The notes beneath the pieces are model-generated. The model made no database searches, was not told where the DNA came from, and saw nothing but the letters and a program-made list of their open reading frames with translations. The translations under genes were made by a program, and so were the position numbers. Source: an uncultured Chloroflexia bacterium (GTDB lineage: Bacteria > Chloroflexota > Anaerolineae > CG2-30-64-16). Taken from it: a stretch of 64,000 nucleotides of DNA. The DNA is taken from assembly GCA_963774265.1 (NCBI GenBank), contig CAVZDU010000002.1:64001-128000 (forward strand). The letters are read 5' to 3'. Numbering within the stretch: position 1 is the first letter of the stretch; each line of letters starts with the position of its first letter. Below, piece by piece: positions 28,432-42,902 of this stretch.

Positions 28432-29871
28432 GTAACTGTTCAGCGTTACCCTTGACAGGGTGTGGCATGATTACGACATGACCGGGGATGAAGCGCAAGC
28501 CTTTGGGTATTTGCGAGCGGAGAATGCGGCGTTGCGGCAGCAGTTGGCGCTAGCTGTGGCGCGGATTATCGAGCTAGAGGCGCAACTGAACCAGCGCGGT
28601 GAGCCGCCGCCGTTCGTGAAGCCGAACCGGCCGCAGCCGACGGAGCCCAAGGGGCCGCGGAAAAAGCGGGCGGCGGAGCATAACACGTCCCGGAAGCGGT
28701 CGCAGCCGACGCGGATTGAGCGGCACGTGTTGGAGCATTGTCCGGACTGCGGCTATCGCTTGCGCGGCGAGAGCATCGCCTACACGCGGGAAGTGATCGA
28801 GTTACCGCCGCCCCAGCCGGTGGACGTGATCGAGCATCAGGTGATCAAGCGCTGGTGTCCGCATTGCGCGACGTGGCACAGCCCGAAGTTGGATCTGGGC
28901 GGTCAAGTGATCGGGCAGGGGCGGATCGGGGTGCGGGTGGCGAGTCTGGTGAGCTATTTGCGCACGACGTTGCGGCTGCCGTTTCGGGTGATTCAGAGCT
29001 ATCTGGCGACGCTGCACACACTTGCAGTTGAGTGTGGGGGAGCTCGTGGAATTGACCCATGCCGTGCGGCAGCAGTTGCAGCCGCAGGCCGACCAGCTCA
29101 AGGCCGCGGTGCAGACCAGCACGGTGACGCATGGCGATGAAACGAGTTGGCGGGAGAACGGTCAGAACGGTTACGCCTGGGCCTTTGTGACCGCTGGGCC
29201 CGCCGCGGTGCGCTACTTCGAGTTTGCGCACAGCCGGAGTCATCTGGTGGCGCAGCGCATTTTGGGCGCCGACTGGCGGGGTTGGCTGGTGACGGACTTC
29301 TATGCGGCGTACAATCTGATCCCCGGGCGCCATCAACGCTGCTGGGTGCATCTGCTGCGCGATCTGCACGACCTCAAACAGGCGCAGGCGGATAACCTGA
29401 AGTCGTGCAGTGGGCGACCGACGTGCGCAAGCTCTACGACGAGGCGCACACCTGGCTGGCGGCGCACCCGGCGCCGACGCTGGTGGAACGGCGCACGCGT
29501 ACGCCGACCTCTTCACCCGGGCCTGTCGCTTGGGCGAGCAGTATGCCCTGACCTATGACCACCCGTGTTGCACGCTGGCCAAGCGCTTGCTGCGCCACCA
29601 GGACGAGTTGTTCCAGTTCGTCTTGGTGCCCGGGTTACCGCCCGACAATAATCTGGCCGAGCGCAGCATCCGGCCGTTGGTCATCATGCGCAAGATCAGC
29701 GGCGGCTCCCGCAGTGCAGGAGGGCACCAAAACGCGCTTGACCTTGGCCAGCTGTGCTCCATACTTGGGCCGCCCGCAACCTCAATCCGTTCCTGGAATG
29801 CTTGCGGCCTTCCAGGCACCGACCGCCACCGCACCCCCATAAACTCCCTTACCCGAACGGTGAACAGTTAC
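28432..29871 (+). mobile_element. IS66-family element (compact, TnpC only), 1440 bp
   Basis: Terminal inverted repeats GTAACTGTTCAGCGTT / AACGGTGAACAGTTAC and a perfect 8-bp target duplication CCGAAGGC (28424-28431, 29872-29879). Confidence 0.95.
28478..29845 (+). pseudogene. IS66 transposase TnpC, frameshifted as assembled
   Basis: Coiled coil, CPDCG...CPHC zinc finger, HGDETSW, TDFYAAY, QRCWVHLLR, DNNLAERSIRP. Confidence 0.9.
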
Positions 29872-29885
29872 CCGAAGGCGCGGCT

Positions 29886-29914
29886 TTGACGCAAAGGGGC
29901 ATAGCGTGTAAGAT
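29886..29914 (+). promoter_or_regulatory. Sigma70-type promoter of selC
   Basis: TTGACG-17 bp-TAAGAT, 7 nt upstream of the tRNA. Confidence 0.75.
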
Positions 29915-29921
29915 TGCCGGC

Positions 29922-30015
29922 GGGAGTGGTTGTCGTCCGGTGGCGGCCCCGGTCTTCAAAACCGGTGTGGGGCGGTAGGCCCGGCTCAGGTGAGTTCGAC
30001 TCTCATCCACTCCCG
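29922..30015 (+). tRNA. selC: tRNA-Sec (anticodon UCA)
   Basis: 8-bp acceptor GGGAGTGG/CCACTCCC, 6-bp D stem, CCGGT-CT-TCA-AA-ACCGG, long variable arm, 5-bp T stem with TTCGACT loop, discriminator G. CCA is not fully encoded. Confidence 0.95.
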
Positions 30016-30125
30016 CCTTTTAGTAGGCGAGAGTTGGCTTTTTCGCCCCTCACTACTACAGGTTGTGGCATCCGTGACCATGCACAGGGAACGGAGGCGC
30101 AACCAATGTATACCACCCCCCAAGC

Positions 30126-30170
30126 AAAAAAGGGGGGGGTGCGTTACCCCCGTTCGGATCACGCACCCCC
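30126..30170 (-). terminator. Intrinsic terminator after the 67-aa ORF
   Basis: Minus strand reads GGGGGTGCG...CGCACCCCC followed by CCC-TTTTTT. Confidence 0.6.
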
Positions 30171-30193
30171 AGCCGTTCACAGTCTCATCCGTG

Positions 30194-30397
30194 CTAAAGC
30201 TGCTTGATCTGGTTGCCGTTGAGACGCCAAATCGTATGCTTATCCATGACCGTGACGAAGGTCGTGTGCCCAACTGCCAACCGCGCTGCTGTTTGTGCCA
30301 TCTGGGGCGTTAGCCCGTCTGCTTCTTTGTACTGTGGCAGCGCCAGCGTTTCTGACCGTCGCGTGAATACCCCTGAGATCACAGTAACAGTCTTCAC
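30194..30397 (-). CDS. Small hypothetical protein (67 aa)
   Basis: GGAGG RBS 6 nt before the GTG, a consensus promoter upstream and a terminator downstream. Confidence 0.6.
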   Translation of the reverse strand: MKTVTVISGVFTRRSETLALPQYKEADGLTPQMAQTAARLAVGHTTFVTVMDKHTIWRLNGNQIKQL

Positions 30398-30426
30398 GAG
30401 GTGCCTCCATTGATGTGATTGCTAAC

Positions 30427-30456
30427 ATTATACACCCTGAGCAACTTGTCTGTCAA
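30427..30456 (-). promoter_or_regulatory. Consensus sigma70 promoter
   Basis: Minus strand TTGACA-18 bp-TATAAT. Confidence 0.7.
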
Positions 30457-30963
30457 TCACCCATCTGACATAGCAAATATTATTACAAGTCCCGTACTAC
30501 CCACGGCTCTATCCCCGGCCCGACATGCCGATGACCTCCACCGCCCTACCGCCCGGACAACAAAAAAAGCGGGGACAGCCGTCCTCTAACGTCGTAAAAC
30601 GACGCGAGTACGACCATCACCGCGCCTTATGGTTCAATCCCCAACGCCAGCATCCACACCATGACCGCAAAGCAGAAACGGTCCACATCAGGTTGTCCCC
30701 GGTCCGTGCCGCTATTCCCTTGGTGCCTGCCTGTTGTCCGGGCGGGTGACGCAGGTGACGTGGTGTGTGTGGCCCTGGCCGACTTCACCGCATGGTACGG
30801 GCCATTGCCTGACGTGGCCGACGACGCGCGGGGATGACGCTACAATGCCCACACCGGGCGGTAGGGCGCGCACAGGGCGTTTCAGTGTGGCAACGTGATC
30901 AATTTACCATGTGAGCGTGCAGGGCACGCGAGAATGGCAAGGACGCTTGGCGGTAGGGTGACG

Positions 30964-32621
<1,658 letters not shown>

Positions 32622-32656
32622 GGCATACCCTACTATGCAACGGGTGAGGTTCACAA

Positions 32657-32747
32657 AGTATAGCACCTGGGCGAAAGACGTGCAACGAAGGGCTTGACAG
32701 TGGCCTCAAATGGCTGTATTGTACAAAACGTCAATACGTTCTGTACA
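32657..32747. promoter_or_regulatory. Back-to-back promoters with an inverted-repeat operator or res-like site
   Basis: Minus TTGCAC-17-TATACT (32685-32657); plus TTGACA-17-TATTGT (32694-32722); inverted repeat TGTACAAAACGT-caat-ACGTTCTGTACA (32720-32747). Confidence 0.7.
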
Positions 32748-32768
32748 CAGACCTAAGAGGGGGGCATC

Positions 32769-33602
32769 ATGGCGCGCCGCAAGGTCCCAAACGGGGTGAA
32801 CGGACAGACAACAATACCGGAAGCATGTACCGGGGCTTATATCCGCGTCTTCACTGACAAGCAAGCCGACGAAGGCTTTTCCCTCGATGCCCAGCGCAAA
32901 CGCGTTGCGGCCTATTGTGTGGCACAGGGTTGGACGCTATGTCCCGAACACGTCTATGTGGACGCTGGCTTATCCGGCAAGACCTCAGACCGTCCGCAGT
33001 TCCGGGCGATGCTGAGAGCGGCGCAAGAGGGACGAATACAACGTGTCGTGTCCGTCAAGCTGGATCGGCTCGCCCGCAACACGAAGGACTTTCTGGCGAC
33101 CGTTGACCTGCTGCAAGGGTTGGGTTGTGATCTCGTGCTTATCAAAGAGAGCTTTGACACGTCCACCCCACAGGGCAAGTTTGCACTCACCATGTTTGCG
33201 GCCCTGGCCGAGTTGGAAGTGCCCATGATTGCGGAGCGTACCATGTCGGGCCGGGTGCAGAAGGCGGCGCAGGGCGGGTACAATGGTGCACCTGTGCCTT
33301 TTGGGTATAACTACGACGGGAAGGCTTTTACGGCGAACGCCCATGCCGAGACGGTGCGGAGCATCTTCGCTGACTTCCTGGCAGGTAAGACCATGCGGCA
33401 GATTGCGGCAAGCCTTAACGCTAAGGGGACACCCACGGCAAGGGGGGGTAAGTGGTACGCGTCAACTGTGGCTTATGTCCTTCACAATGGCTTTTATGCT
33501 GGCTTCATTCAGTACAACGGCAGCGAAGTCATGGGAGAACACACCACACTTGTGAGCGTGGAAGATTACGAACGGGCAAACCAAGGCAGTTCGACACCAT
33601 GA
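32769..33602 (+). CDS. Serine recombinase (resolvase + recombinase domains, no Zn ribbon), catalytic Ser replaced by Phe
   Basis: AYIRVFT (usual YxRVST), SLDAQ, DAGLSG, KLDRLAR, DTSTPQGK, PFGY, LNAKGTPTARGGKW. Confidence 0.9.
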   Translation: MARRKVPNGVNGQTTIPEACTGAYIRVFTDKQADEGFSLDAQRKRVAAYCVAQGWTLCPEHVYVDAGLSGKTSDRPQFRAMLRAAQEGRIQRVVSVKLDRLARNTKDFLATVDLLQGLGCDLVLIKESFDTSTPQGKFALTMFAALAELEVPMIAERTMSGRVQKAAQGGYNGAPVPFGYNYDGKAFTANAHAETVRSIFADFLAGKTMRQIAASLNAKGTPTARGGKWYASTVAYVLHNGFYAGFIQYNGSEVMGEHTTLVSVEDYERANQGSSTP

Positions 33603-33725
33603 GTTGGACATGCAAGCATCAAAACCACCGAGCGTTATCTTGGCGTCACCCAGGACCTACAGGACGCACCTTGCGACCACTTGGGGTTGCGGCTGGAGTA
33701 ACGAGGACACCCCGTAGGAGGAAAC

Positions 33726-34454
33726 GTGATTTATTCCAACGAACCGAATAATTAGCATGATTTGCAGGATAAGGTTTGTTCGATTCTCCAGGTCTGTGGT
33801 TTCCAGGCCGAGGTAGATAGAACTATCGACACCGTTCGAGGTCCCGTAGACATCGACGTTCACGCCATCGACGAGACATGAAACCCCGAGCAGGCATGCC
33901 TGTGTGAATGCAAGCACTGGAGCAGTGCTGTGCCCAAGACGGTCGTGCACGCCTTCCGAACCGTGGTGACGGATGACGGCGCCAACATCGGATTTATGAT
34001 TTCGCGCTCTGGCTTTCAAAAGGGGGCCTATGAGGCCGCGGAGAAGTCAAATGTCCACCTGGTCGATTGGTACGAATTCCAGGCGCTCTTTCTTGAGCGT
34101 TGGAAGGAGGGGCGCTACGCGGGGCTTCGCCCACTCTTTGAAGAGCACTTTGACTTCTACGACTTCCTCTCCAAACCCATCCTAAATGCCATTAGCGGGG
34201 ACGAAAGCGCAAGGGAGTATAACTTACTGAGGGAGCGGTGAGCTCCGCAGGCCGCTGGAAACCCTTGGATGCACATGGTCCATCCTCAGGACTTCCCGCC
34301 CACGCTGCCATGTTGCGCTACCGAAATCGACAATGACGGCAGCAGGAGAGATTTGGAGTTCGTCGACTATGCTTCGTACTTCGATTGGCAAGAAGTTCGT
34401 TTGCGGGCGGGCATCCGCGAGTTCGAGGAGTTTATTGAGCGAAGGTCAGTTTGA
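33726..34454 (+). pseudogene. Mrr-like restriction endonuclease with three in-frame stops
   Basis: One frame from the GTG (RBS AGGAGG): MIYSNEPNN*HDLQDKV...DIDVHA...*NP...CECKHW...SGFQKGA. Stops are TAG 33753, TGA 33879 and TGA 34239. Confidence 0.8.
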
Positions 34455-34617
34455 CAGCACCCGTGACTGGTGCTAATGTGGGGCTAGAATTTGACGCCCG
34501 ATGGATGCAGCGAACATCCACCGGGCTAGGCGCAAGTGTGGTAGCACGTTACACCCGGAGCGATTATAACGGACGCTCGTGCTAGGCCACAAACGGCAGC
34601 ACGGGCGTTTTTGTTTG
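34451..34617 (+). ncRNA. Putative structured leader/attenuator RNA with promoter, copy A
   Basis: TTGACA-17-TAATGT, hairpin 34496-34526, AGGCGCAA, small hairpin, GCGATTATA, terminator 34573-34617. Homologous to copy B. Confidence 0.65.
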
Positions 34618-34750
34618 ACGAGAACGGTTAGGCAGGTGACAACGTGTGCGGCCTCCTACCGGTTATTCCTTAAAACCACTGTTTGGATAGTCACGAATAC
34701 TACAACTTGTAGTGGTTTGCGAGCGAACACCTACTACATGTCGTACCCAA

Positions 34751-34837
34751 GTCGTCCGGTGGCAGCCCCGGTCTTCAAAACCGGTGTGGGGCGGTAGGCC
34801 CGGCTCAGATGAGTTCGACTCTCATCCACTCCCGCCT
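34751..34837 (+). repeat. attR-like duplicate of tRNA-Sec lacking the first 10 nt
   Basis: Matches 29932-30018 except G>A at 34764 and 34809. Confidence 0.95.
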
Positions 34838-34914
34838 ACACGCCTATTTATGCCTGTAAGCGCCTGTATTTTATGGATAGACCGGTGTGGTCCTTGAACC
34901 TTCATCTTAGGGCC

Positions 34915-34948
34915 AGACGGGGGCCGCCACCGGATGACAACCACTCCC
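34915..34948 (-). repeat. Inverted 5' half of tRNA-Sec (34 bp)
   Basis: Minus strand GGGAGTGGTTGTCATCCGGTGGCGGCCCCCGTCT matches 29922-29955 at 32 of 34 positions. Confidence 0.9.
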
Positions 34949-35243
34949 ACGAGTTGGTTGCCCTGAACCCGAACTTCCTTTGGCCTTCGAGACAACGATA
35001 ATTTTCTCAAGCGCTGCTTTTCCAGGTCATTCCACAATGTTGTACTGCTCAATATTGCACCATACAGGGCGCTGGTTGGCAAGGGTGCAAGATGTGCCGC
35101 AGCCTGCGTAATTATCCGCATCCTCATGCGTTGTGTATTGTGGCACTAGTGGCGATGGATAAATAGTGTTCCGTGCAAGACAAGACAATATAAACTACCA
35201 GAGAAGCCTGGAGGCTTCCGAGCAGGGAGGCAAAGAAGAACCA

Positions 35244-36065
35244 ATGATAGCGAGTGGATGGTTAAGTTGGCTGGCCGTCATGCTGGCGTTAGTCCTCAGC
35301 AGCGTTACAGCCGGGGGACCGGGAAAGGTATGGATGCCTTTGTTGGAGAGAGCCCCCGACCCTCCGAAGCTGGGGATCGCCGGTGCGACACCCGCACAAG
35401 TCAAGGCATTGGGCGGCAGTTGGTATCACAACTTTGGCTCGTCGCCTGAGAGCGCAGGGGGCGTCGAAGCGGTGCCGATGATATTTGGCAGGGATGTGCC
35501 ACAGAAGGTCGGCGGCAACTCGGCGTACCTGTTGGGGATGAACGAACCCGATAAGGGCGGGGGGGCAAACCTGACGCCAGAGGAGGGCGCACAAGTCTGG
35601 CGCAAGATCGAGCTTGCGTTCCCCGATAAGTTGCTGGTATCGCCACAGCCAAGCCATGAAGACCCGGAATGGTTAGTGCGCTTCCGGGAGGCGTACAGGG
35701 CCGCGTATGGGCGGTGGCCCAGGTTGGACGGCCTGGCGATGCACTGCTACATCCCGGAACCAGGGGGATGTATCGCCTTAGGGCAGAAGTATGTAGGATG
35801 GGCGCGAGCCTGGGGTGTGGGCCAAATCTGGGTGACCGAATTCTCTTATTTGCCGAAGTGGGCGCCAAATGCGGAGGCGCAGACGCGCGAGTTCGTCGCC
35901 TGGCTGGAGGCTGAACCGTTGGTGAAGCGGTACGCCCCGTGGACGTCCTACATTCGGGGCGGGGAGCCGTACTGGCCGCATACCGATCCGGGGACCAATC
36001 CGTCGCTGTTCACCGGACCGACAAGCACGGAGCTAACAGCAATGGGACGGTGGTACAAGCGGTAG
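35244..36065 (+). CDS. Secreted glycoside hydrolase, GH128/Glyco_hydro_cc-like
   Basis: Signal peptide, VPMIFG, LLGMNEPD, AMHCY, IWVTEF. Confidence 0.78.
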   Translation: MIASGWLSWLAVMLALVLSSVTAGGPGKVWMPLLERAPDPPKLGIAGATPAQVKALGGSWYHNFGSSPESAGGVEAVPMIFGRDVPQKVGGNSAYLLGMNEPDKGGGANLTPEEGAQVWRKIELAFPDKLLVSPQPSHEDPEWLVRFREAYRAAYGRWPRLDGLAMHCYIPEPGGCIALGQKYVGWARAWGVGQIWVTEFSYLPKWAPNAEAQTREFVAWLEAEPLVKRYAPWTSYIRGGEPYWPHTDPGTNPSLFTGPTSTELTAMGRWYKR

Positions 36066-36104
36066 GACGCGCCAATCCTTGAAAGGCCAATTATGCGAAA
36101 TGAC

Positions 36105-36274
36105 TTGACAACGCGGCGCACCTCGTGATAGGGTAGTGCCGAACTTCTAAAGAGATGCCGGGGCAAGTGCGGAAACACTCACCCCGGCAGGCGCAACAGT
36201 GGTGTAAGCACTGAGAGCCAAGGGCGATTATACAAGGCGCTCGTGCTAGACCGCAAGGTTGCACGAGCGTTTCT
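36105..36274 (+). ncRNA. Putative structured leader/attenuator RNA with promoter, copy B
   Basis: TTGACA-18-TAGGGT, hairpin 36156-36189, AGGCGCAA, hairpin 36197-36213, GCGATTATA, terminator-like hairpin 36237-36274. Confidence 0.65.
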
Positions 36275-36295
36275 CATCCCGCCTGTCCCCGTTGC

Positions 36296-38095
36296 GTGAA
36301 ACCCATAAGGATGCAAATGAGCGCGATCACCGGCCCGCACATCATCAATGGCGCCGGCCCCTGGCTGGACAGGCTCAAACGGTTGCAGCCCAGTCTGGCC
36401 CTCTTCCTGGACCCCAACGTTGACGATGTACGCGCCTTTGGAAAGGCCTGCCCGAACACCGTCACCGTCGGCCGCATCTATGTACCGGATAGCGAAGTCG
36501 ACAGCCGAATCCGGGCCAACCCAGAGGAAGCCGCCCAATGGGCGCATAATCTTGTCATGGCCCACCCCGCGCGCAGCGTCATCGACTACTGGCAAGTCGC
36601 GAACGAGGTGCTTCAGTTCTCGGACGGCCTGCCACTCCTGAGCCGCTTTGAGCTGCGACGCATGCAACTCGCCGATGCCCCGGGCTACAAGTGCGGCATT
36701 CTGGCCTTCAGTGTGGGCCAACCCGATATGCCGGTTACTGATCGTATGGCACTCTGGCGCCAGGTCTACCCGGCGCTGGAGTACGCCGAGGCTCACAGCC
36801 ACATCCTGCTGCTCCACCAGTACGGGGCACCGGATCTGTGGGGGCCAGCCGCCAAGGGTGGGGCAGATTGGTTGATCGACCGCTACCAGAAGCAGGTTCT
36901 GCCCCGATTGCCGTTCTCACGCCTCAAGGCCGCTGTGGTCGAGACCGGCATCGACGGCCTACTGCTGGATGGCCTGGAGAGTAGTGCCCTTCAGGCTTTC
37001 GGTGAACCAGAAGAGTTCGGCGTTGGCGTCTGGACCCCACCCAAGGATCCCTACTTCAAAGTCGAGGAGGCTATGCCTGGAGAGCTGTCCCTGGCCGCCG
37101 GACCGGCCGGCTGGATGAAGTTCACCACGGCGACCGACTACGCCCAACAACTCATTAGCATCGGCCTTTACCACGAGCAGTGGGCCGACCGCATCATCGG
37201 CTACGCCGTGTTCACTCTCGGGCATAACTCGCCTTGGAGCACTTACGACATAGGCGAACAGGGCAACTCGAACGACGTTCTCGGCCTGTTGGCCGCCTAC
37301 TATGAACAGGCCGGCCCGGTGACTCCGGAGCCGCCCACTGGAGGAGCTGTGGAAACGAAAATCTTCGACAAGGACGGCACCGAACGCGACGCCAACTGGC
37401 TGAAAACGAACTACGGAACCGTTATCGTGCCGGCTGCAATGACCAGCGGTTTGAAGTTCATCCTGGCCAAAATCCAGGTCACCGAAGGCCCCGCCACGCT
37501 CATCGTGCGGGTGAATAACGCAGCCAATAACCAGCCGCTGGCCCAACAAGCTGTGGCCTTCTCCTGGCCGGACGCGCCCACCGATCTGACGACCGACGCG
37601 GCGTCCGTCTTCAAAACCCTTTTCAAGCCCCGCGCCAACGTCCAGTGGACTGACAGCAACGGCGTCACCGGCTTTGGTCTGGGGACCGGCAGCTATATCT
37701 ACGACGCCAACACGGGGGGTCCACACGCTGTCTGGTTGCTGCACAACCTATACCCGTCCGACGCACTAGATAAGCTCGGCATGTTGGCCGGCACAGAACA
37801 TCGCGGCCCACTGGACCTGACCTTCGTGCTGGCCAATGCCGAGATCGTTGTTCAACCGGCTGACCTGGAACAAACCATCCGCGACGCAACCTGGCAGAAG
37901 GTCGGTGTGCCCTTTAATCCGGACGCCGCGTTCCCTAAGTATGCCCGGGCGCACGGCCTGGGTTCACCCGTACCCGGCACCGGCGAGTTCGACATCCGCA
38001 TCAACGGTGTCGACTATCGCGTTCAGCCCTTCGTGGGCGGCATCGTCTATTGCGTGATCGGCGATTGGGGCAACGTCAAACACATGCAGTGGTAA
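36296..38095 (+). CDS. Hypothetical protein, possible clan-A glycoside-hydrolase barrel plus C-terminal cell-wall-binding-like module
   Basis: 599-aa ORF with strong codon bias; WQVANEV, LHQYG and VETGID resemble clan GH-A motifs. Confidence 0.6.
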   Translation: MKPIRMQMSAITGPHIINGAGPWLDRLKRLQPSLALFLDPNVDDVRAFGKACPNTVTVGRIYVPDSEVDSRIRANPEEAAQWAHNLVMAHPARSVIDYWQVANEVLQFSDGLPLLSRFELRRMQLADAPGYKCGILAFSVGQPDMPVTDRMALWRQVYPALEYAEAHSHILLLHQYGAPDLWGPAAKGGADWLIDRYQKQVLPRLPFSRLKAAVVETGIDGLLLDGLESSALQAFGEPEEFGVGVWTPPKDPYFKVEEAMPGELSLAAGPAGWMKFTTATDYAQQLISIGLYHEQWADRIIGYAVFTLGHNSPWSTYDIGEQGNSNDVLGLLAAYYEQAGPVTPEPPTGGAVETKIFDKDGTERDANWLKTNYGTVIVPAAMTSGLKFILAKIQVTEGPATLIVRVNNAANNQPLAQQAVAFSWPDAPTDLTTDAASVFKTLFKPRANVQWTDSNGVTGFGLGTGSYIYDANTGGPHAVWLLHNLYPSDALDKLGMLAGTEHRGPLDLTFVLANAEIVVQPADLEQTIRDATWQKVGVPFNPDAAFPKYARAHGLGSPVPGTGEFDIRINGVDYRVQPFVGGIVYCVIGDWGNVKHMQW

Positions 38096-38099
38096 ACTC

Positions 38100-39992
38100 G
38101 TGGCCCTGCGGAGTGCATCGTTGAATTCATCAAACTCCTCTTCGCCCGGTCAGAAGCCATCGTCGCCGGCCAGCCGCCTGAGAACCCAGGTGCGGGAGTT
38201 CTGGGAGGCGCTGCGCAATACGCCGGAAGCGTTCCGCCTGGTGTGGTCGGCCAGCCGCCGCGCAGCCCTGGCGGGAATAGGACTGACGCTGATCGCGGCC
38301 GTCCTGCCCGCAGGGCAGGCGTGGGTAGGCAAGCTGATCGTCGATGCCATCGTCAGCGCGATCGGCCAGGGCATGGAGCCGGTCGCCGGGCTCCGCTTTG
38401 TCCTGCCTTACCTGGCGCTGGAGTTCGCCCTGCTGCTGATCAGCTCAATCACGAGCCAGGTGCGCAATCTTTTCGATCGCGTGCTCCAATCGCAGCTCAC
38501 CAACCACGTCAACAGCCTCATCATCAACAAGGCGATCGGCCTGGACCTGCAGTTCTTCGAAGACCCGATCTTCTACGATATGCTGCAGAATGCGCGGCGC
38601 CAGGCCGACACCAGCGCGCTCAGTATCGTCAACTCCACACTCCAGATGGCGCAACAGGTCATCACGCTGGTGTCGCTGGTCGCCCTTCTGGTGCGGTTCA
38701 GCCCGTGGCTCGCGGTCATCGTCTTCGTGTCCGCGATTCCGGCCTTCCTCTCACAATCCCAATACGCGGAGCGCGCGTTTCGCGCGGTCAGCCGCCGCGC
38801 GCCCGAATCCCGGCTTCTGAACTACCTGGAAATGCTACTGACAGGCAACGACACCGTGAAGGAGATCAAGCTCTTTGGACTGGGCAAACCGTTGCTCAAG
38901 CGCTACCAGGAGCTCTTCACGCAGTTCTACCTGGAGGACCTCGCCATCTCCCAGCGGCGCACGCTCGCGGGGTTGGTCTGGGGCCTGTTGTCCAACCTGG
39001 CCTACTACGGCAGCTATGCCTGGATTGTCCTGCGCACGGTCGCGGGCCGCATCACCCTGGGCGACATGACGATGTTCCTGGGCATCTTCCGGCAGTCCCA
39101 GAGCTCGATCCGTTCGCTGCTCGACAGCTTGAACCGCCTCTACGAGAGCAACCTGTACCTCGACAATTTGCTCGACTATCTGAAGCTGCAGCCGCTGCTG
39201 GTCGCGCCGGCGAACGGCCTCACCGTGCCCGCACCGATCCGCCAGGGAATCGAGTTCCGGAACGTCTCCTTCTGTTACCCCGGGTCCGACACCTTTGTAT
39301 TGCGAAATATCAACCTGCACATTCAGCCCAGCGAGCGCATCGCGTTGGTCGGCTTGAACGGCGCAGGCAAGACGACGCTGATCAAGCTACTCACGCGGCT
39401 CTATGACCCGACCGAGGGCCAAATTCTGCTCGATGGCGTGGACCTGCGCGAGTACGACCTGACGAGCCTCCACCAGTGCTTCGGCGTTATTTTCCAGGAC
39501 TTCGTGCGCTACCAGTTCACGGTGCGAGAGAACATCGGCTTCGGTCAGGTGGATGCGCTCGATGACCTCGATCGGATCAAGGATGCGGCGGACCGCGGGG
39601 GCGCCGACTCGATCGTCGAGAAGATGCCCAAGGGTTACGACACTATGCTGGGGCGGCGCTGGGAAAAGGGCCAGGAGCTGTCGGGCGGGCAGTGGCAGAA
39701 GATCGCGCTGGCTCGCGCGTTCATGCGGAAAGCCGAGGTGCTCGTATTAGACGAGCCGACTTCTGCCCTGGACGCAGAGGCGGAATATGAAGTATTCCGG
39801 CGCTTCGGCGAGCTGATGGAAGGCCGCATCGCCGTGCTGATTTCGCACCGCTTCTCGACCGTGCGCATGGCGGACCGGATCGTGGTGTTATCGGCAGGCA
39901 AAATCCTGGAGCTGGGCAGTCACGCGGCGTTAATGTCGCTGGACGGCGCGTATGCGCGGTTGTTTAATTTGCAGGCGGAAGGGTATCGATAG
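38100..39992 (+). CDS. ABC transporter, fused permease/ATP-binding protein
   Basis: TM domain, GLNGAGKT, LSGGQWQKIALARA, LVLDEPT, ISHR. Confidence 0.95.
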   Translation: MALRSASLNSSNSSSPGQKPSSPASRLRTQVREFWEALRNTPEAFRLVWSASRRAALAGIGLTLIAAVLPAGQAWVGKLIVDAIVSAIGQGMEPVAGLRFVLPYLALEFALLLISSITSQVRNLFDRVLQSQLTNHVNSLIINKAIGLDLQFFEDPIFYDMLQNARRQADTSALSIVNSTLQMAQQVITLVSLVALLVRFSPWLAVIVFVSAIPAFLSQSQYAERAFRAVSRRAPESRLLNYLEMLLTGNDTVKEIKLFGLGKPLLKRYQELFTQFYLEDLAISQRRTLAGLVWGLLSNLAYYGSYAWIVLRTVAGRITLGDMTMFLGIFRQSQSSIRSLLDSLNRLYESNLYLDNLLDYLKLQPLLVAPANGLTVPAPIRQGIEFRNVSFCYPGSDTFVLRNINLHIQPSERIALVGLNGAGKTTLIKLLTRLYDPTEGQILLDGVDLREYDLTSLHQCFGVIFQDFVRYQFTVRENIGFGQVDALDDLDRIKDAADRGGADSIVEKMPKGYDTMLGRRWEKGQELSGGQWQKIALARAFMRKAEVLVLDEPTSALDAEAEYEVFRRFGELMEGRIAVLISHRFSTVRMADRIVVLSAGKILELGSHAALMSLDGAYARLFNLQAEGYR

Positions 39993-40082
39993 CGCGACTC
40001 TCTGCCTTCCTCGTTTGTGGTATACTTGCACTCCGCATGGCAGTGTGGCCTGCACCAACGTTATCCTGTACCGAGGTGGCAG

Positions 40083-42902
40083 GTGGGCACCACTCCCCCA
40101 TTCGTTGACCGTGACCTTGAGATGGCACGCCTCGATGCGTGGCTCGGCGAGGCATTGGCCGGACATGGCCTCGCCGGCTTCGTGGCCGGCGAGGCAGGCG
40201 CGGGCAAAACTGCGCTGATGGCCGAGTTCGCGCGGCGCGCCCAAGTGCGACACAGCACTTTATTGGTCGCCTCGGGTAGCTGCGACGCGCCCACCGGGGT
40301 GGGCGATGCATTCTTGCCCTTCCGTGAAGTCCTCGCTCTGCTCATCGGCGATGTGGATGCCGGGCTCGCGAGCGGAGCCATCAACGAGGCCAACGCCGAG
40401 CGCTTGCGCCGGGTCGTCGCTCGCTCCACCGAGATCCTCCTGGAGGTGGGTCTGGAGCTGGTCGGTGCATTCGTACCCATGGGAGGTCTCATCGCCGCGC
40501 TGGCCCGGCTGGCTAAGAAGTCCACTGGGCTCGATAAAAAACTCGCAGATTTGAGTGAACGCCAACGTCCCGGCAGCACTGCGCCCGCTGCCGCGCCGGA
40601 GCAGATTTTCGAGCAGTACCTGGCGTTCCTGCGCAAGTTGTCCGCCGAGCAGCCGCTCGTGATCCTATTTGACGATCTTCACTGGGGCGACAGTTCGTCG
40701 ATCAGTCTGCTTTTCCACATCGCCCGCCGCATCGAATCTTATCCGATTCTGCTCGTCGGTTCCTTCCGCCCAAGTGAGATCGAGCTTGGCAGGGGGGGCC
40801 AACGTCACCCGCTCGAAAAGATGTTGGCCGAGCTTAAGCGCTACACTGGTGAAACCACGATAGACCTGGACCAAACGGCTCGCTCGGGCGCGCGCACATT
40901 CGTGGATGCTTTTCTCGACTCCGAGATGAGCGGCTTAGGCTTCGACTTCCGGCGCATGCTCGCAGAACGAACCCGAGGTAATCCGCTCTTCGTCGTGGAA
41001 ATGCTGAGCACCCTGCGGGAGCGCGGCGCCGTCGCCCAGACGCCCGACGGCAGATGGACCGTCGACCCCACCCTTGATTGGGACGCACTGCCGACGCGCG
41101 TGGAGGGGGTTGTCGAGGAGCGCATCGGCCGGCTTACGACTGAACTGCGCAGGATCCTTACGGTGGCAAGCGTGGAGGGCGAGCAGTTCACCGCGGAGAT
41201 CCTGGCGCGGCTCCAACGTGTGGATGAACGCGACCTCGTGCGCCAACTGAGTGACGAGCTGGCGCGGCGGCACCGCCTGGTCGAGGCGACCGGCATGGAG
41301 CGTATCGGGGCTCAACGGCTCTCACTGTACCGCTTCACGCATCGTCCCGTGCAGACCTACCTGCACCGATCGCTAGACCGTATCGAGCGCGCCTATTTAC
41401 ACGAGGACGTCGCCCGGGTGCTCGAGGAGTTCTACGGCGACCGACTGGATGACATCGCCTTGCAGCTGGCGCATCACTACATGGAAGCGGGGTTGGTCAT
41501 CCAAGCCGCGCACTATCTTCGCAGTGCGGGCGAAGTAGCTGCCTCGCGCTACGCCCACGTAGAGGCGGCGGATCTATTCGGCCAGGCGCTCAGCCTTACA
41601 CCCAACGGCGACACAGCAAGCCAGTTCTCCCTGCTCCTGGTACTCGAAACCGCGCACCAGTGGCAGGGCAAGCGGCAGGAACAGGCCGAGGATCTGGCAG
41701 CCCTGGCCGCCCTGGCCGAGCGAATGGGTGATCCACGCGGCATAGCCGAGGTGCATCTACGTCGCGCGGAGCACGCCCGGCTGACCGGCCACTATCCCGA
41801 GGCACTGGATCAAGCGGAGCAAGCGGTGGCCGCAGCAGTGAAGGCAGCCGCGAAGGACCTGGAAGCACGCTCTTACGGGCTTTGGGGCCGTATACTACTT
41901 CAACAAGACAGCTACACAGAAGCGGAGGAATGGCTTCGGCTGGCGATTGAGATGGGGAAAGCCAATGGACAGCTCGAGGTGGCCGCGCGCGCACAATACG
42001 ATCTCGGCAATACTGCATTCTCGGTCAGCCACTTCATCGAAGCCCAGACTCGTTTCGCGACTGCCACGAACCTGTACCGCGATCTGGGCGACCGCCGCGG
42101 CCTGGTCGCTTGCCTTCAAATGTCCGGGGCAGTTAAGCGCAGGCTCGGCGATTATGTGGCCTCAATGAATGAACTAGAAGAAGCGCTTAGGATGTGCCGA
42201 GACCTCGGTTGGCGGCACCAGGAAGCCTACGCGTTAGGCGCGCTTGGCGACACCGCATTGGATTTGGGCCAGTACCCGACAGCCGCTCGTTGGCACGATC
42301 AATGCCTGGTCGTGTGTCGTGAGGTCGAGGATTGGGAGGGTGAGGCGATCAGTCTGTACACGCTCGGCTCGATTCTCCACCGACTGGGTCAGCCGATCGA
42401 AGCGGCAGCCCTGTTCAAGCAATCGCTGGAAGTCCTCGAGCGGATCCAATACCGCAGAGGCATAGGCTATGCAGTGACTTATCTAGGCCTGGCGCTGCTT
42501 GACGCAGGCCAACCCGCGGAAGCGCTGACCGCACTAGAGCGGGCGCTCGCTGTCCGGACAGAGCTAGATCCAGACAGCGGAACCCTGGCCGATACCTTTG
42601 GTGGCCTGGCCTCCGCGGCCCTTGCCCTGGGCGACAGGGCTGCGGCCCAGAGATATGCTCGGAACGCCCTGGCCGCACTCGAGGCGGCCGGGGAAGATGC
42701 AGTCGAATATCCCGCGCAAGTCTACTGGCAGTGCTATCAGGTGCTCCGCGCGGAGGATGTGGCCGACCCCGCGGCCAGACAAGCTCTCGAGCGCGGCCGA
42801 GCCTGGATCCAGAGACAAGCGGCGCGCATCCACGATGATACGCTGCGCGCCAGCTTCCTGCAGAATGTGCCCTTCAACGCGGCACTCCGAACCGCCAGGT
42901 GA
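40083..42902 (+). CDS. STAND-like AAA ATPase with TPR repeats
   Basis: PFVDRD, GEAGAGKT (Walker A), ILFDDLHWGD (Walker B), TRGNPLFV, TPR-like helical C-terminus. Start chosen at a GTG after an RBS-like GAGGTG. Confidence 0.88.
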   Translation: MGTTPPFVDRDLEMARLDAWLGEALAGHGLAGFVAGEAGAGKTALMAEFARRAQVRHSTLLVASGSCDAPTGVGDAFLPFREVLALLIGDVDAGLASGAINEANAERLRRVVARSTEILLEVGLELVGAFVPMGGLIAALARLAKKSTGLDKKLADLSERQRPGSTAPAAAPEQIFEQYLAFLRKLSAEQPLVILFDDLHWGDSSSISLLFHIARRIESYPILLVGSFRPSEIELGRGGQRHPLEKMLAELKRYTGETTIDLDQTARSGARTFVDAFLDSEMSGLGFDFRRMLAERTRGNPLFVVEMLSTLRERGAVAQTPDGRWTVDPTLDWDALPTRVEGVVEERIGRLTTELRRILTVASVEGEQFTAEILARLQRVDERDLVRQLSDELARRHRLVEATGMERIGAQRLSLYRFTHRPVQTYLHRSLDRIERAYLHEDVARVLEEFYGDRLDDIALQLAHHYMEAGLVIQAAHYLRSAGEVAASRYAHVEAADLFGQALSLTPNGDTASQFSLLLVLETAHQWQGKRQEQAEDLAALAALAERMGDPRGIAEVHLRRAEHARLTGHYPEALDQAEQAVAAAVKAAAKDLEARSYGLWGRILLQQDSYTEAEEWLRLAIEMGKANGQLEVAARAQYDLGNTAFSVSHFIEAQTRFATATNLYRDLGDRRGLVACLQMSGAVKRRLGDYVASMNELEEALRMCRDLGWRHQEAYALGALGDTALDLGQYPTAARWHDQCLVVCREVEDWEGEAISLYTLGSILHRLGQPIEAAALFKQSLEVLERIQYRRGIGYAVTYLGLALLDAGQPAEALTALERALAVRTELDPDSGTLADTFGGLASAALALGDRAAAQRYARNALAALEAAGEDAVEYPAQVYWQCYQVLRAEDVADPAARQALERGRAWIQRQAARIHDDTLRASFLQNVPFNAALRTAR

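Follow-up and report, generated by a model that had tools for sequence, protein, structure and literature searches.

Two similar cassettes of promoter and hairpin motifs (copies A and B) are located in the window, the 64,000-nt stretch of Chloroflexota DNA that was analysed, and raise the question of what such a cassette would control. The initial annotation described them as paralogous RNA switches, each with a sense promoter, a terminator with a competing antiterminator pairing, and an embedded minus-strand promoter for a short antisense RNA that gates readthrough. The two copies are paralogous and carry each of the listed parts in place in the sequence (Table 1), with 77% mean column identity in alignment; the P1 stems differ, and the apex is common to both. 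Antisense-RNA attenuation on an outward promoter, gating integrase transcription in the excised circle of a mobile element, is on balance the probable function of the cassette. The original proposal of antisense-gated attenuation is supported in part: its architecture stands in silico, the mobile-element context was not part of it, and the suggested cross-talk between the copies is doubtful.

Table 1. Positions of cassette parts, island A and flanking features in the window.
Feature	Positions	Strand	Basis and remarks
tRNA-Sec gene	29922-30017	+	Rfam 73.2 bits, ARAGORN; serves as attL of island A
Island A, decayed integrated element of ~4.7 kb	30018-34750	.	87-bp direct repeat, 97.7% identity
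Methylase/Mrr fragment in island A	30964-31866	-	Pfam
Serine recombinase fragment in island A	32769-33602	+	Pfam
Mrr fragment in island A	33930-34241		Pfam
Copy A sense promoter (predicted)	TTGACA 34451-34456; -10 TAATGT 34474-34479	+	17-nt spacer, TGcTAATGT; sequence, family conservation
Copy A sense start (predicted)	near 34486	+	From promoter
Copy A hairpin P1	34496-34526	+	Folds, covariation; minus strand, predicted antisense-RNA terminator hairpin
Copy A hairpin P2	34529-34555	+	GGC..GUGUG..CACGU..ACC; folds, covariation
Copy A P2 3' arm		+	5' half of proposed antiterminator
Copy A GCGATTATA	34560-34568	+	Sequence
Copy A terminator P3	34571-34610, T run to 34616	+	Folds; G-U-rich helix, a sense-strand-only mark
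Copy A antisense promoter (predicted)	-35 TTGTGG 34592-34587; -10 TATAAT 34568-34563	-	-35 in P3 loop, -10 in linker; spacer of exactly 18 nt is the P3 5' arm; predicted start near 34556
Copy A antisense RNA (predicted)	34484-34556	-	~73 nt, two hairpins, weak U tail; ends predicted
Spacer from cassette A to att repeat	34617-34750	+	Conserved in two same-genus genomes; short CTAC-type repeats; probably an attP arm
Partial tRNA-Sec, attR of island A	34751-34837	+	tRNA-Sec positions 11-97 (alignment, BLAST), without the 5' acceptor strand; Rfam 42.4 bits, under family threshold
Inverted tRNA-Sec 5' fragment	34915-34948	-	Positions 1-34, 94% identity
Copy B sense promoter (predicted)	TTGACA 36105-36110; TAGGGT 36129-36134	+	18-nt spacer, TGn; predicted start near 36141
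Copy B hairpin P1	36156-36189	+	Folds; minus strand, predicted antisense terminator
Copy B hairpin P2	36190-36219	+	Folds
Copy B antisense promoter (predicted)	TTGCGG 36256-36251; TATAAT 36232-36227	-	18-nt spacer; predicted start near 36220
Copy B terminator P3	36235-36272	+	Fold
Copy B antisense RNA (predicted)	36143-36220	-	~78 nt; ends predicted
tRNA-Sec 3'-end remnant, 12 nt	36273-36284	+	CTCATCC..CGCCT, fused directly to terminator B
Chromosomal 599-aa ORF	36296-38095	+	No Pfam match

A three-hairpin RNA family in Chloroflexota

Each cassette folds into three hairpins, P1, P2 and the terminator P3. A third copy is found in the same genome (G000:C2:451115-451254), and each of the three folds better than 200 of 200 shuffles (z -3.2 to -4.4). 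The covariance-model search of Chloroflexota suggested by the initial annotation used a sample of 439 genome slots and returned 34 matches in genomes of the same class, all with the order of parts seen in copies A and B, and weaker matches phylum-wide. Model R2 finds matches in 14 of the 37 genomes of the bacterium's own family or order and in 13 of 150 other genomes of the class. A pattern scan of viral contigs gave 77 stretches, one of which (L132) is a true member by R2. The scan of genome contigs gave eight stretches, and the six that were re-scored are attributed to chance because none is matched by R2.

The RNA also appears to be unrecognised, as had been claimed. With Rfam 15 at gathering thresholds, the only match in the whole window is the tRNA-Sec gene, and over 34300-36400 no match with E <= 10 covers either copy; the families compared include plasmid ctRNAs, c4, STAXI and Chloroflexi-1. 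A description of the cassette was not found in the literature searched, and the supplementary files of motif catalogues may list it under another name.

The fold is supported by covariation among the homologs. Compensatory double changes are observed in 35 of 35 pairs of the 34 aligned matches. Pairing cells reach 91%, compared with 62% for shuffles and 38-44% for slid partners, although these pair counts lean towards structure because alignment A8 was fitted to the covariance model. All 16 pairs of P3 covary, and the helix contains 69 G-U and 16 A-C pairs, in contrast to 16 G-U and 30 A-C pairs in P1 and P2 combined (Fisher p = 2.6e-7). G-U pairs mark the sense strand; they are common only in P3, and P1 and P2 therefore seem to be folded on both strands. 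The P1 apex (G-UG...(A)CA-C) is conserved, and the P1 loop starts with YUNR in 14 of 34 matches (expectation 1/16). Few other unpaired positions are conserved beyond the promoter motifs. The segment AGGCGCAA, originally described as invariant, is constant among close copies only and elsewhere reads UGGUGACA, GGGUAGC and so on.

The conserved apex, together with a sensor-like domain that is followed by a terminator with a competing pairing, would suit a riboswitch-like leader in which P1-P2 binds a ligand or a protein and controls P3. Such a leader is nevertheless very improbable. The alignment contains no conserved unpaired core, both G-U and A-C pairs are avoided in P1 and P2, which points to the use of both strands, and Rfam offers no match. 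The sequences downstream are unrelated host genes, att sites or the integrase gene (int) rather than a coherent gene set, and the riboswitch idea was rejected on account of this diversity. A type I toxin-antitoxin pair or a leader-peptide attenuator is hardly credible. Overlap of a sense transcript with a short antisense RNA on a mobile element, as predicted here, would be expected of a toxin-antitoxin locus, but the stems covary and the loop lengths change out of frame. No ORF is conserved: the longest sense ORFs are 0-35 aa with scattered starts, and 3 of 34 members have none.

Facing promoter motifs and a candidate antiterminator

The embedded minus-strand promoter recurs throughout the family. 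The motif TTGnnn-N16-18-TAnnnT occupies one fixed place in 27 of 34 matches (21 with N17) and is absent from the other seven; its consensus is TTG-N17-(TGn)TAnnnT. The sense strand carries it in 0 of 34 matches, and shuffles contain 1.5 on average and 5 at most. In a profile anchored on TTG alone, information peaks exactly at the three fixed bases of TAnnnT, at a distance of 17 nt, and a TG also emerges two bases upstream of TAnnnT. Only TTG is kept in the antisense -35. Of 32 members, 21 carry a sigma-70-like sense promoter (shuffle mean 0.56), and none is recognisable in the other 11. The sense and antisense promoters are arranged face-to-face, ~95 bp apart. What is present in each case is a promoter motif, from which promoter activity is predicted. 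None of the four promoters of copies A and B was picked up by a simple consensus scan; their weaker hexamers match at three of six positions only. A simple terminator scan called the minus-strand counterpart of P1 (anti-P1) in copy B and missed both P3 hairpins, because their loops exceed the limit of the scan.

In keeping with the short antisense RNA of the original proposal, the minus-strand transcript is predicted to be ~75-85 nt long and to end at anti-P1. The stretch before P1, which would form the tail of the antisense terminator, contains a mean of 6.0 A in 10 bases; copy A has a weak U tail behind anti-P1. The predicted antisense RNAs of all three copies in the genome consist of two hairpins and a tail, with folding energies of -37.7 kcal/mol (z -5.9) for copy A and -38 kcal/mol (z -5.0) for copy B. 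One metatranscriptome run (0.06 of sampled words) yielded a single 247-nt contig over 35830-36066 with seven differences, which represents a relative's fragment of the glycosyl-hydrolase gene adjoining the cassette, and no contig over the cassettes.

From this arrangement we infer two transcripts and an antiterminator switch. The sense promoter would produce a ~125-nt leader that folds into P1, P2 and the intrinsic terminator P3. The opposite-strand promoter, whose -35 falls within the P3 loop and whose -10 falls within the linker between P2 and P3, would yield an antisense RNA that spans both P2 and P1 and ends at the mirror image of P1. While the sense RNA is still nascent, its P2 3' arm, together with the bases that follow, would pair with the 5' arm of P3 to form an antiterminator, and the polymerase would run on. 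Antisense RNA bound to P1 and P2 would sequester the antiterminator strand, allowing P3 to form and transcription to stop.

Duplex energies and nascent-RNA folds suggest that the competing pairing, a further element of the initial annotation, is cognate-specific and overlaps the antisense target. Duplexes between the P2 3' arm and the P3 5' arm have a mean energy of -13.9 kcal/mol for cognate partners and -11.0 kcal/mol for non-cognate partners (permutation p < 0.001). The 14 distant members alone give -13.7 versus -10.8, a difference for which 0 of 2000 permutations are as low. In copy B, AGCACUGAGAGCC of P2 is able to pair with GGCGCUCGUGCU of P3 (-17.3 kcal/mol). Of 31 nascent-RNA folds, 22 have at least 6 nt of the P3 5' arm paired with the antisense-target region. 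The signal for an antiterminator is modest, with z < -1.64 in only 13 of 32 sequences and a median rank of 6.5 of 32 for the cognate partner. In the best fold of the full-length sense RNA, P2 is kept together with P3, which has a strength of -20 to -30 kcal/mol, and termination may therefore be the default with or without antisense RNA.

A strong P3 that persists in the full-length fold would also be expected if the convergent promoters caused transcriptional interference, or if the locus made two stand-alone trans-acting small RNAs, with no regulated readthrough in either case. The ~125-nt sense RNA would then be the product and not a leader, and the antisense promoter would tune it; in a variant, regulation would be exerted by the antisense RNA itself, for instance on other mRNAs of the element or the host. 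The facing promoters agree with this explanation, as do integrated copies with nothing coherent downstream, and the available text of the sources documents interference between the icsA and RnaG promoters, 120 bp apart, and for pCF10. However, interference or small RNAs leave unexplained the cognate-specific pairing of the P2 and P3 arms, as well as the constant outward placement of the cassette near att with int across the junction. A conserved single-stranded seed is likewise missing, except for the stretch that reads as the antisense -10. This explanation is considered unlikely.

Cassettes at the edges of integrated elements

Rather than leading into genes of the window, the copies form the outward-facing edge of integrated elements at tRNA att sites. 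Copy A is located at the end of the decayed island A, which is inserted in tRNA-Sec and delimited by the gene and its partial repeat. The inverted tRNA-Sec fragment beyond this repeat is the scar of an earlier rearrangement. Copy B is a remnant that abuts the 12-nt leftover of a tRNA-Sec 3' end. From 36273 on, the sequence is homologous to the region downstream of tRNA-Sec in a same-genus genome, in which the ortholog of the 599-aa ORF (81% identical) directly follows an intact tRNA-Sec gene.

The same placement is observed across the family, with an att-proximal, outward-pointing cassette in small elements inserted next to tRNA genes. In 14 of 33 loci the terminator is followed at a distance of 33-351 nt by a tRNA gene, in addition to the partial tRNA-Sec after copy A, and no tRNA gene lies upstream of the cassette in the 33 loci examined. 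In 11 of 23 loci tested, elements of 4.5-16 kb are bounded by direct repeats of 42-99 bp that share at least 97% identity. All 11 have the cassette inside the delimited element, at 11-350 nt from the att repeat. In eight of these, the first gene across att on the strand of the cassette encodes a tyrosine integrase; L054, L056 and island A depart from this pattern. While the element is integrated, int is positioned just downstream of the tRNA gene. The elements are plasmid- or satellite-like; their replication genes are prim-pol, VapE or DUF3987 genes, their recombinases are ordinary tyrosine or serine enzymes, and the cassette is found at the end of a one-direction gene array. The genes downstream of integrated copies are diverse, unrelated host genes. 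In two members, one from a same-family genome and one from an IMG/VR contig, the cassette directly precedes an FtsK/SpoIIIE-family gene.

Two further explanations draw on this location. The first is a boundary insulator, in which P3 and anti-P1 act as a two-way terminator block that keeps transcription of the element operon from leaving the element and host transcription from entering it, and the promoter-like motifs are incidental. The end of a one-direction array would be an apt position for such a block, terminators are found in both directions, and one-third of the members (11 of 32) lack a sense promoter. A plain terminator, however, needs neither P2 nor two fixed-spacing promoters kept class-wide, the G-U pattern reflects a both-strand constraint on P1 and P2, and the U tail after anti-P1 is poor in some copies, which together leave an insulator improbable. 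The second, scarcely conceivable, is a guide RNA for the recombinase that resembles the IS110 bridge RNA and reads the tRNA target through its variable loops. The cassette does adjoin att at the element end, and elements with different target tRNAs differ widely in P1. The recombinases are nonetheless of ordinary types, and the longest exact match between P1-P2 and att on either strand averages 6.5 nt for cognate and 6.7 nt for non-cognate combinations in 11 elements.

Under antisense-RNA attenuation, the outward edge at a tRNA att site makes the integrase across attP the most likely gated target. In the integrated state, the cassette would face the tRNA/att site and host DNA. Excision would join the element ends and bring the cassette to a position 120-420 nt upstream of the integrase gene, across attP, from which it would set the integrase level of the circular form. 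The RNA of a resident copy may, in addition, affect a cognate circle in trans. A tentative possibility is an RNA-only function in immunity or incompatibility, by which resident antisense RNA would shut off the integrase of a cognate excised or incoming circle. Such immunity would imply control of re-integration, tandem insertion and superinfection. The fast-evolving stems and loops of P1 and P2 would then represent specificity classes, comparable to plasmid incompatibility groups, and the three non-identical copies of this genome would be mutually blind specificities. The cross-talk between copies envisaged in the initial annotation is doubtful, since each of the three copies has its own P1 stem and its own version of both loops.

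Relation to known attenuators and implications

In the pre-emptor model of pT181/pIP501-type plasmids, the competing pairing overlaps the antisense target. The cassette resembles these plasmids in a short cis-encoded antisense RNA, here predicted from a motif, that starts inside the leader, and in an intrinsic terminator that directly follows the antisense target on its 3' side within the leader. An alternative pairing with one strand within the antisense target is also shared, with a modest effect size in the modelled cassette. In silico, the cassette layout fits countertranscript attenuation. Unlike the plasmid systems, the cassette has no sequence or Rfam relationship to them, belongs to integrative elements, precedes attP and int after excision (or an FtsK/SpoIIIE gene) instead of rep, and has its antisense promoter built into the terminator itself. 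For the rep genes of pT181, pIP501 and pAMbeta1, countertranscript-driven transcription attenuation is described in the available text of the source (PMC2879508).

Face-to-face promoters with overlapping transcripts are also described, in the available text on these systems, for prgQ/prgX of pCF10 (Qs and Anti-Q) and for Shigella icsA/RnaG, where, in the nascent sense RNA, a factor-independent terminator is promoted by the antisense RNA and interference acts alongside. According to the same text, the overlap is 223 nt in pCF10 and the promoters of icsA and RnaG stand 120 bp from each other, compared with a predicted overlap of ~80 nt in the cassette. In contrast to both systems, the cassette leader encodes no peptide, no protein repressor gene is attached, and the cassette is positioned at an att edge.

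Outward promoters that drive int in the excised form are described, again in the available text, for ICEclc (Pcirc; PMC5812530) and for the 3' end of ICEKp1 (PMC13023037). The predicted cassette promoter similarly faces outward at the element end opposite int, and circularisation would join it to int in the same orientation in 8 of 11 elements. The Pcirc and ICEKp1 promoters are described in that text as constitutive, whereas the cassette promoter is followed by a structured leader and a terminator with an embedded antisense promoter. The cassette elements, at 4.5-16 kb, are not large ICEs.

Small element RNAs that cause premature termination or block the expression of element genes include the CI RNA of P4, c4 of P1 and P7, and sar of P22. 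As in P4, the cassette elements carry an integrase and a primase; unlike these RNAs, the cassette has convergent promoters at an att edge, and it has no Rfam match to c4 or to any other family.

To our knowledge, gene regulation and mobile elements of Chloroflexota are almost unstudied, and antisense-RNA attenuation has so far been mostly a device of plasmid replication and conjugation. The cassette would add a new, well-supported RNA family with strong covariation and a phylum-wide distribution. It provides a practical marker for the edges of small integrative elements in Chloroflexota genomes and constitutes a compact portable part of ~170 bp with two predicted promoters and two predicted terminators. 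Remnants such as copy B leave a predicted outward promoter and attenuator in front of host genes, and these would be live if the attenuation reading holds. If this reading is true, antisense-RNA attenuation is combined in nature with promoters that reach the integrase gene only after excision.

A structured RNA family beyond two paralogs

Every part of the cassette named in the initial annotation is present in copies A and B at the positions assigned to it (sequence 34200–36600 was read). Each copy folds in silico into three hairpins (P1, P2 and the terminator P3) better than 200 of 200 shuffles (z of −3.2 and −4.4). The two copies show 77% mean column identity in the alignment and a common P1 apex on different P1 stems. 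The initial annotation did not recognize the RNA family, and Rfam leaves both copies unmatched at gathering thresholds and also at E ≤ 10 over 34300–36400.

Covariance-model searches extended the cassette to a family with relatives in the genus, the family/order and the class, and weaker ones in the phylum. A model of three copies (A, B and copy C, located elsewhere in the same genome) matched 7 of 60 relatives, with one match each. The family, which is also the entire order, is represented by 37 genomes, and an 11-sequence model found 19 matches in 14 of them; it also matched 13 of 150 other sampled genomes of the class, scattered over many families. With a 34-sequence model, 16 of 150 other sampled phylum genomes were matched more weakly (24–43 bits); because the full antisense-promoter signature occurs in only 11 of the 29 re-scored matches, membership beyond the class is less certain. 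One of 77 stretches from an IMG/VR pattern search is a true member (L132). Five matches lie within ∼250 nt of a contig end (G002:C92, G036:C13, G003:C137, G035:C12 and G083:C25), suggesting that repetition or polymorphism of the element or its att region interrupts assembly at or next to the cassette.

Across the 34 aligned matches, standard pairs occupy 91% of cells versus 62% in shuffles, and only 38–44% of cells pair when partners are slid by 1–3 columns. Changes on both sides are observed in 35 of 35 pairs (278 cells versus 78 in shuffles); fitting the alignment to the model biases these pair counts toward structure, but the margin is large nonetheless. Sequence conservation is confined to four sites: the P1 apex G-UG...(A)CA-C, the P2 core GUGG...AGCAC in closer members, an A-rich run ahead of P1, and two short motifs that are meaningful on the opposite strand only.

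Opposing promoter motifs and a predicted competing pairing

A minus-strand TTGnnn-N16-18-TAnnnT motif is found at one fixed place in 27 of the 34 matches (the spacer is 17 nt long in 21), versus 0 of 34 on the sense strand and a mean of 1.5 (maximum 5) in shuffles. An information profile anchored on TTG alone (present in 31 of 34 matches) reaches its maxima, exactly 17 nt further along, at the T, A and T of TAnnnT (0.79, 1.04 and 0.97 bits), with ∼0.2 bits at the middle three positions and a TG two bases upstream, as in an extended -10 profile. The spacer is the P3 5' arm, which itself covaries freely. By these sequence patterns, the antisense promoter motif is a selected feature. A simple consensus scan called 0 of the 4 promoters of copies A and B and called a minus-strand terminator at the mirror image of copy B P1.

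From a predicted start in the P2-P3 linker, the antisense RNA would run through the mirror images anti-P2 and anti-P1 into a U-rich tail. Bases ahead of P1 average 6.0 A per 10. Each of the three RNAs predicted for the own genome has two hairpins and a tail, and the U run after anti-P1 declines from good in copy C through moderate in B to poor in A. Wobble pairs provide an independent sign. P3 contains 69 G-U versus 16 A-C pairs, which fits a helix that would be used in the sense RNA only, in contrast to 16 G-U versus 30 A-C pairs in P1 and P2, as expected for helices that would need to fold on both strands (Fisher p = 2.6e-7).

The proposed competing pairing was borne out computationally, at modest size. 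The P2 3' arm and the bases that follow are complementary to the P3 5' arm. Cognate duplexes average −13.9 kcal/mol versus −11.0 kcal/mol for non-cognate duplexes (permutation p < 0.001), and in the 14 members from other families the averages are −13.7 versus −10.8, a value that none of 2000 permutations reached. Controls are weaker (reversed partner, −11.0; P1 arm, −10.4). In folds of RNA truncated right after the P3 5' arm, 22 of 31 members pair ≥6 bases of this arm with the P2 3' arm and the bases that follow it. Cognate pairing reaches z < −1.64 against shuffles in only 13 of 32, and the best full-length fold forms both P2 and P3. The signal is real but modest. The putative antiterminator strand falls entirely within the predicted antisense target.

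The sense promoter (TTGACA-like -35, TAnnnT -10, 16–18-nt spacer) is detected in 21 of the 32 members with sufficient flank (shuffle average, 0.56) and ends immediately ahead of the A-rich run. The 11 members that lack it include two followed directly by an FtsK/SpoIIIE-family ORF, L022 in a same-family genome (G010), with an integrase gene directly upstream, and L132, with other genes directly upstream; in both, the upstream operon may feed the cassette. The L132 contig also codes for terminase and portal proteins, and thus the cassette also occurs as an internal leader inside phage-like elements.

The tRNA-Sec locus and the three copies in the genome

Copy A lies at the end of island A, a decayed integrated element (30018–34750). 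The inverted tRNA-Sec fragment marks an earlier or further rearrangement. The copy B terminator is joined to 12 nt that remain of the tRNA-Sec 3' end, beyond which the sequence is homologous to the stretch after the intact tRNA-Sec in a genome of the same genus; therefore, copy B, now facing a host operon, is the edge that is left of another insertion. The copy C element is 8.7 kb long, apparently intact and inserted in tRNA-Val with 48-bp repeats.

Features of the tRNA-Sec locus and of other sites in the own genome (G000)
Feature	Position	Description
IS66-related ORFs	28460-29889	zf-IS66, then C-terminal end of DDE_Tnp_IS66; directly upstream of tRNA-Sec
tRNA-Sec gene	29922-30017	attL of decayed 4.7-kb island A
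Copy A	34451-34617
Partial tRNA-Sec	34751-34837	closes island A, after copy A and a conserved 134-nt spacer
Inverted tRNA-Sec 5' fragment	34915-34948	first 34 nt, 94% identity; ∼80 nt past partial tRNA-Sec
Glycosyl hydrolase gene	35166-36065	299 aa, Glyco_hydro_cc; between two tRNA-Sec scars
Copy B	36105-36274
ORF and ABC transporter	36296-39992	599-aa ORF without Pfam match, then fused ABC transporter (membrane and ATPase domains)
AAA_16 ATPase gene	40017-42902	961 aa, many TPR repeats (STAND/MalT-like)
Copy C	G000:C2:451115-451254	minus strand
tRNA-Val 3' part	G000:C2:525019-525065	94% identity
tRNA-Val 3' part	G000:C7:385966-386009	98% identity
tRNA-Pyl	G000:C1:1112899-1112990	anticodon cta, called by ARAGORN

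The IS66-related ORFs look like a broken IS66 element, and the lost element edged by copy B may have carried the glycosyl hydrolase gene as cargo. The 599-aa ORF and the transporter are syntenic in the same-genus genome (81% and 90% identity), with tRNA-Sec directly before them. Related elements may have left the two additional tRNA-Val 3' parts as att scars. On contig C7, ARAGORN also calls an unusual tRNA, to which it assigns an anticodon of two bases. In the same-genus genome G002 (L013/L023), the cassette and conserved spacer are located ∼190 nt upstream of an intact tRNA-Sec, not by a partial copy; the extra stretch has the 8-nt GCGAACAC at both ends and a short N run inside, and simple 3'-end integration does not account for this arrangement.

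Cassettes at element edges and proposed readthrough into int

The element-edge and tRNA context lay beyond the view of the initial annotation. In 14 of 33 loci, the terminator is followed by a tRNA gene at a distance of 33–351 nt, to which copy A adds the partial tRNA-Sec; in none of the 33 is a tRNA gene located upstream of the cassette. These downstream tRNAs comprise at least 9 kinds, 10 in the cassette direction and 4 convergent. In 23 loci, as much as 20 kb preceding the cassette was compared with the 600 nt that follow; 11 contain direct repeats of 42–99 bp (≥97% identity), bounding integrated elements of 4.5–16 kb. Among the other 12, several offered <7 kb of upstream sequence. In all 11 elements, the cassette is inside the element, 11–350 nt from the repeat, and points outward. 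The elements are one-direction gene arrays that encode prim-pol, VapE, DUF3987 or AAA_25-wHTH replication proteins and sigma-r4/LuxR-type regulators.

A tyrosine integrase is the first gene past the other att repeat, on the cassette strand, in 8 of the 11 elements. The excised order would thus be sense promoter, P1, P2, P3, attP and int, with ∼120–420 nt predicted between P3 and the int start. The exceptions are L054 and L056, with the integrase at another place in the element, and island A, with a serine recombinase fragment instead. In the integrated state, the genes downstream of cassettes are unrelated host genes, which disfavors a riboswitch; a guide RNA and a small-ORF or type I toxin-antitoxin system were likewise tested and disfavored.

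The predicted layout matches antisense-RNA transcription attenuation, which is described for icsA/RnaG, with mention of pT181, pIP501 and pAMbeta1 (PMC2879508), and for Anti-Q/Qs of pCF10 (PMC3181467). The position matches that of outward-facing promoters to which int is joined only upon excision, namely ICEclc Pcirc (PMC5812530) and the ICEKp1 3'-end promoter (PMC13023037). A literature search at the level of article listings did not return the combination of attenuation with an outward int promoter. A convergent small-RNA or interference module, with the two promoters opposed, and a boundary insulator, at the edge of the element, share the remaining probability with these minor rivals. Antisense-gated readthrough from the cassette into int is the favored reading, held with moderate confidence.
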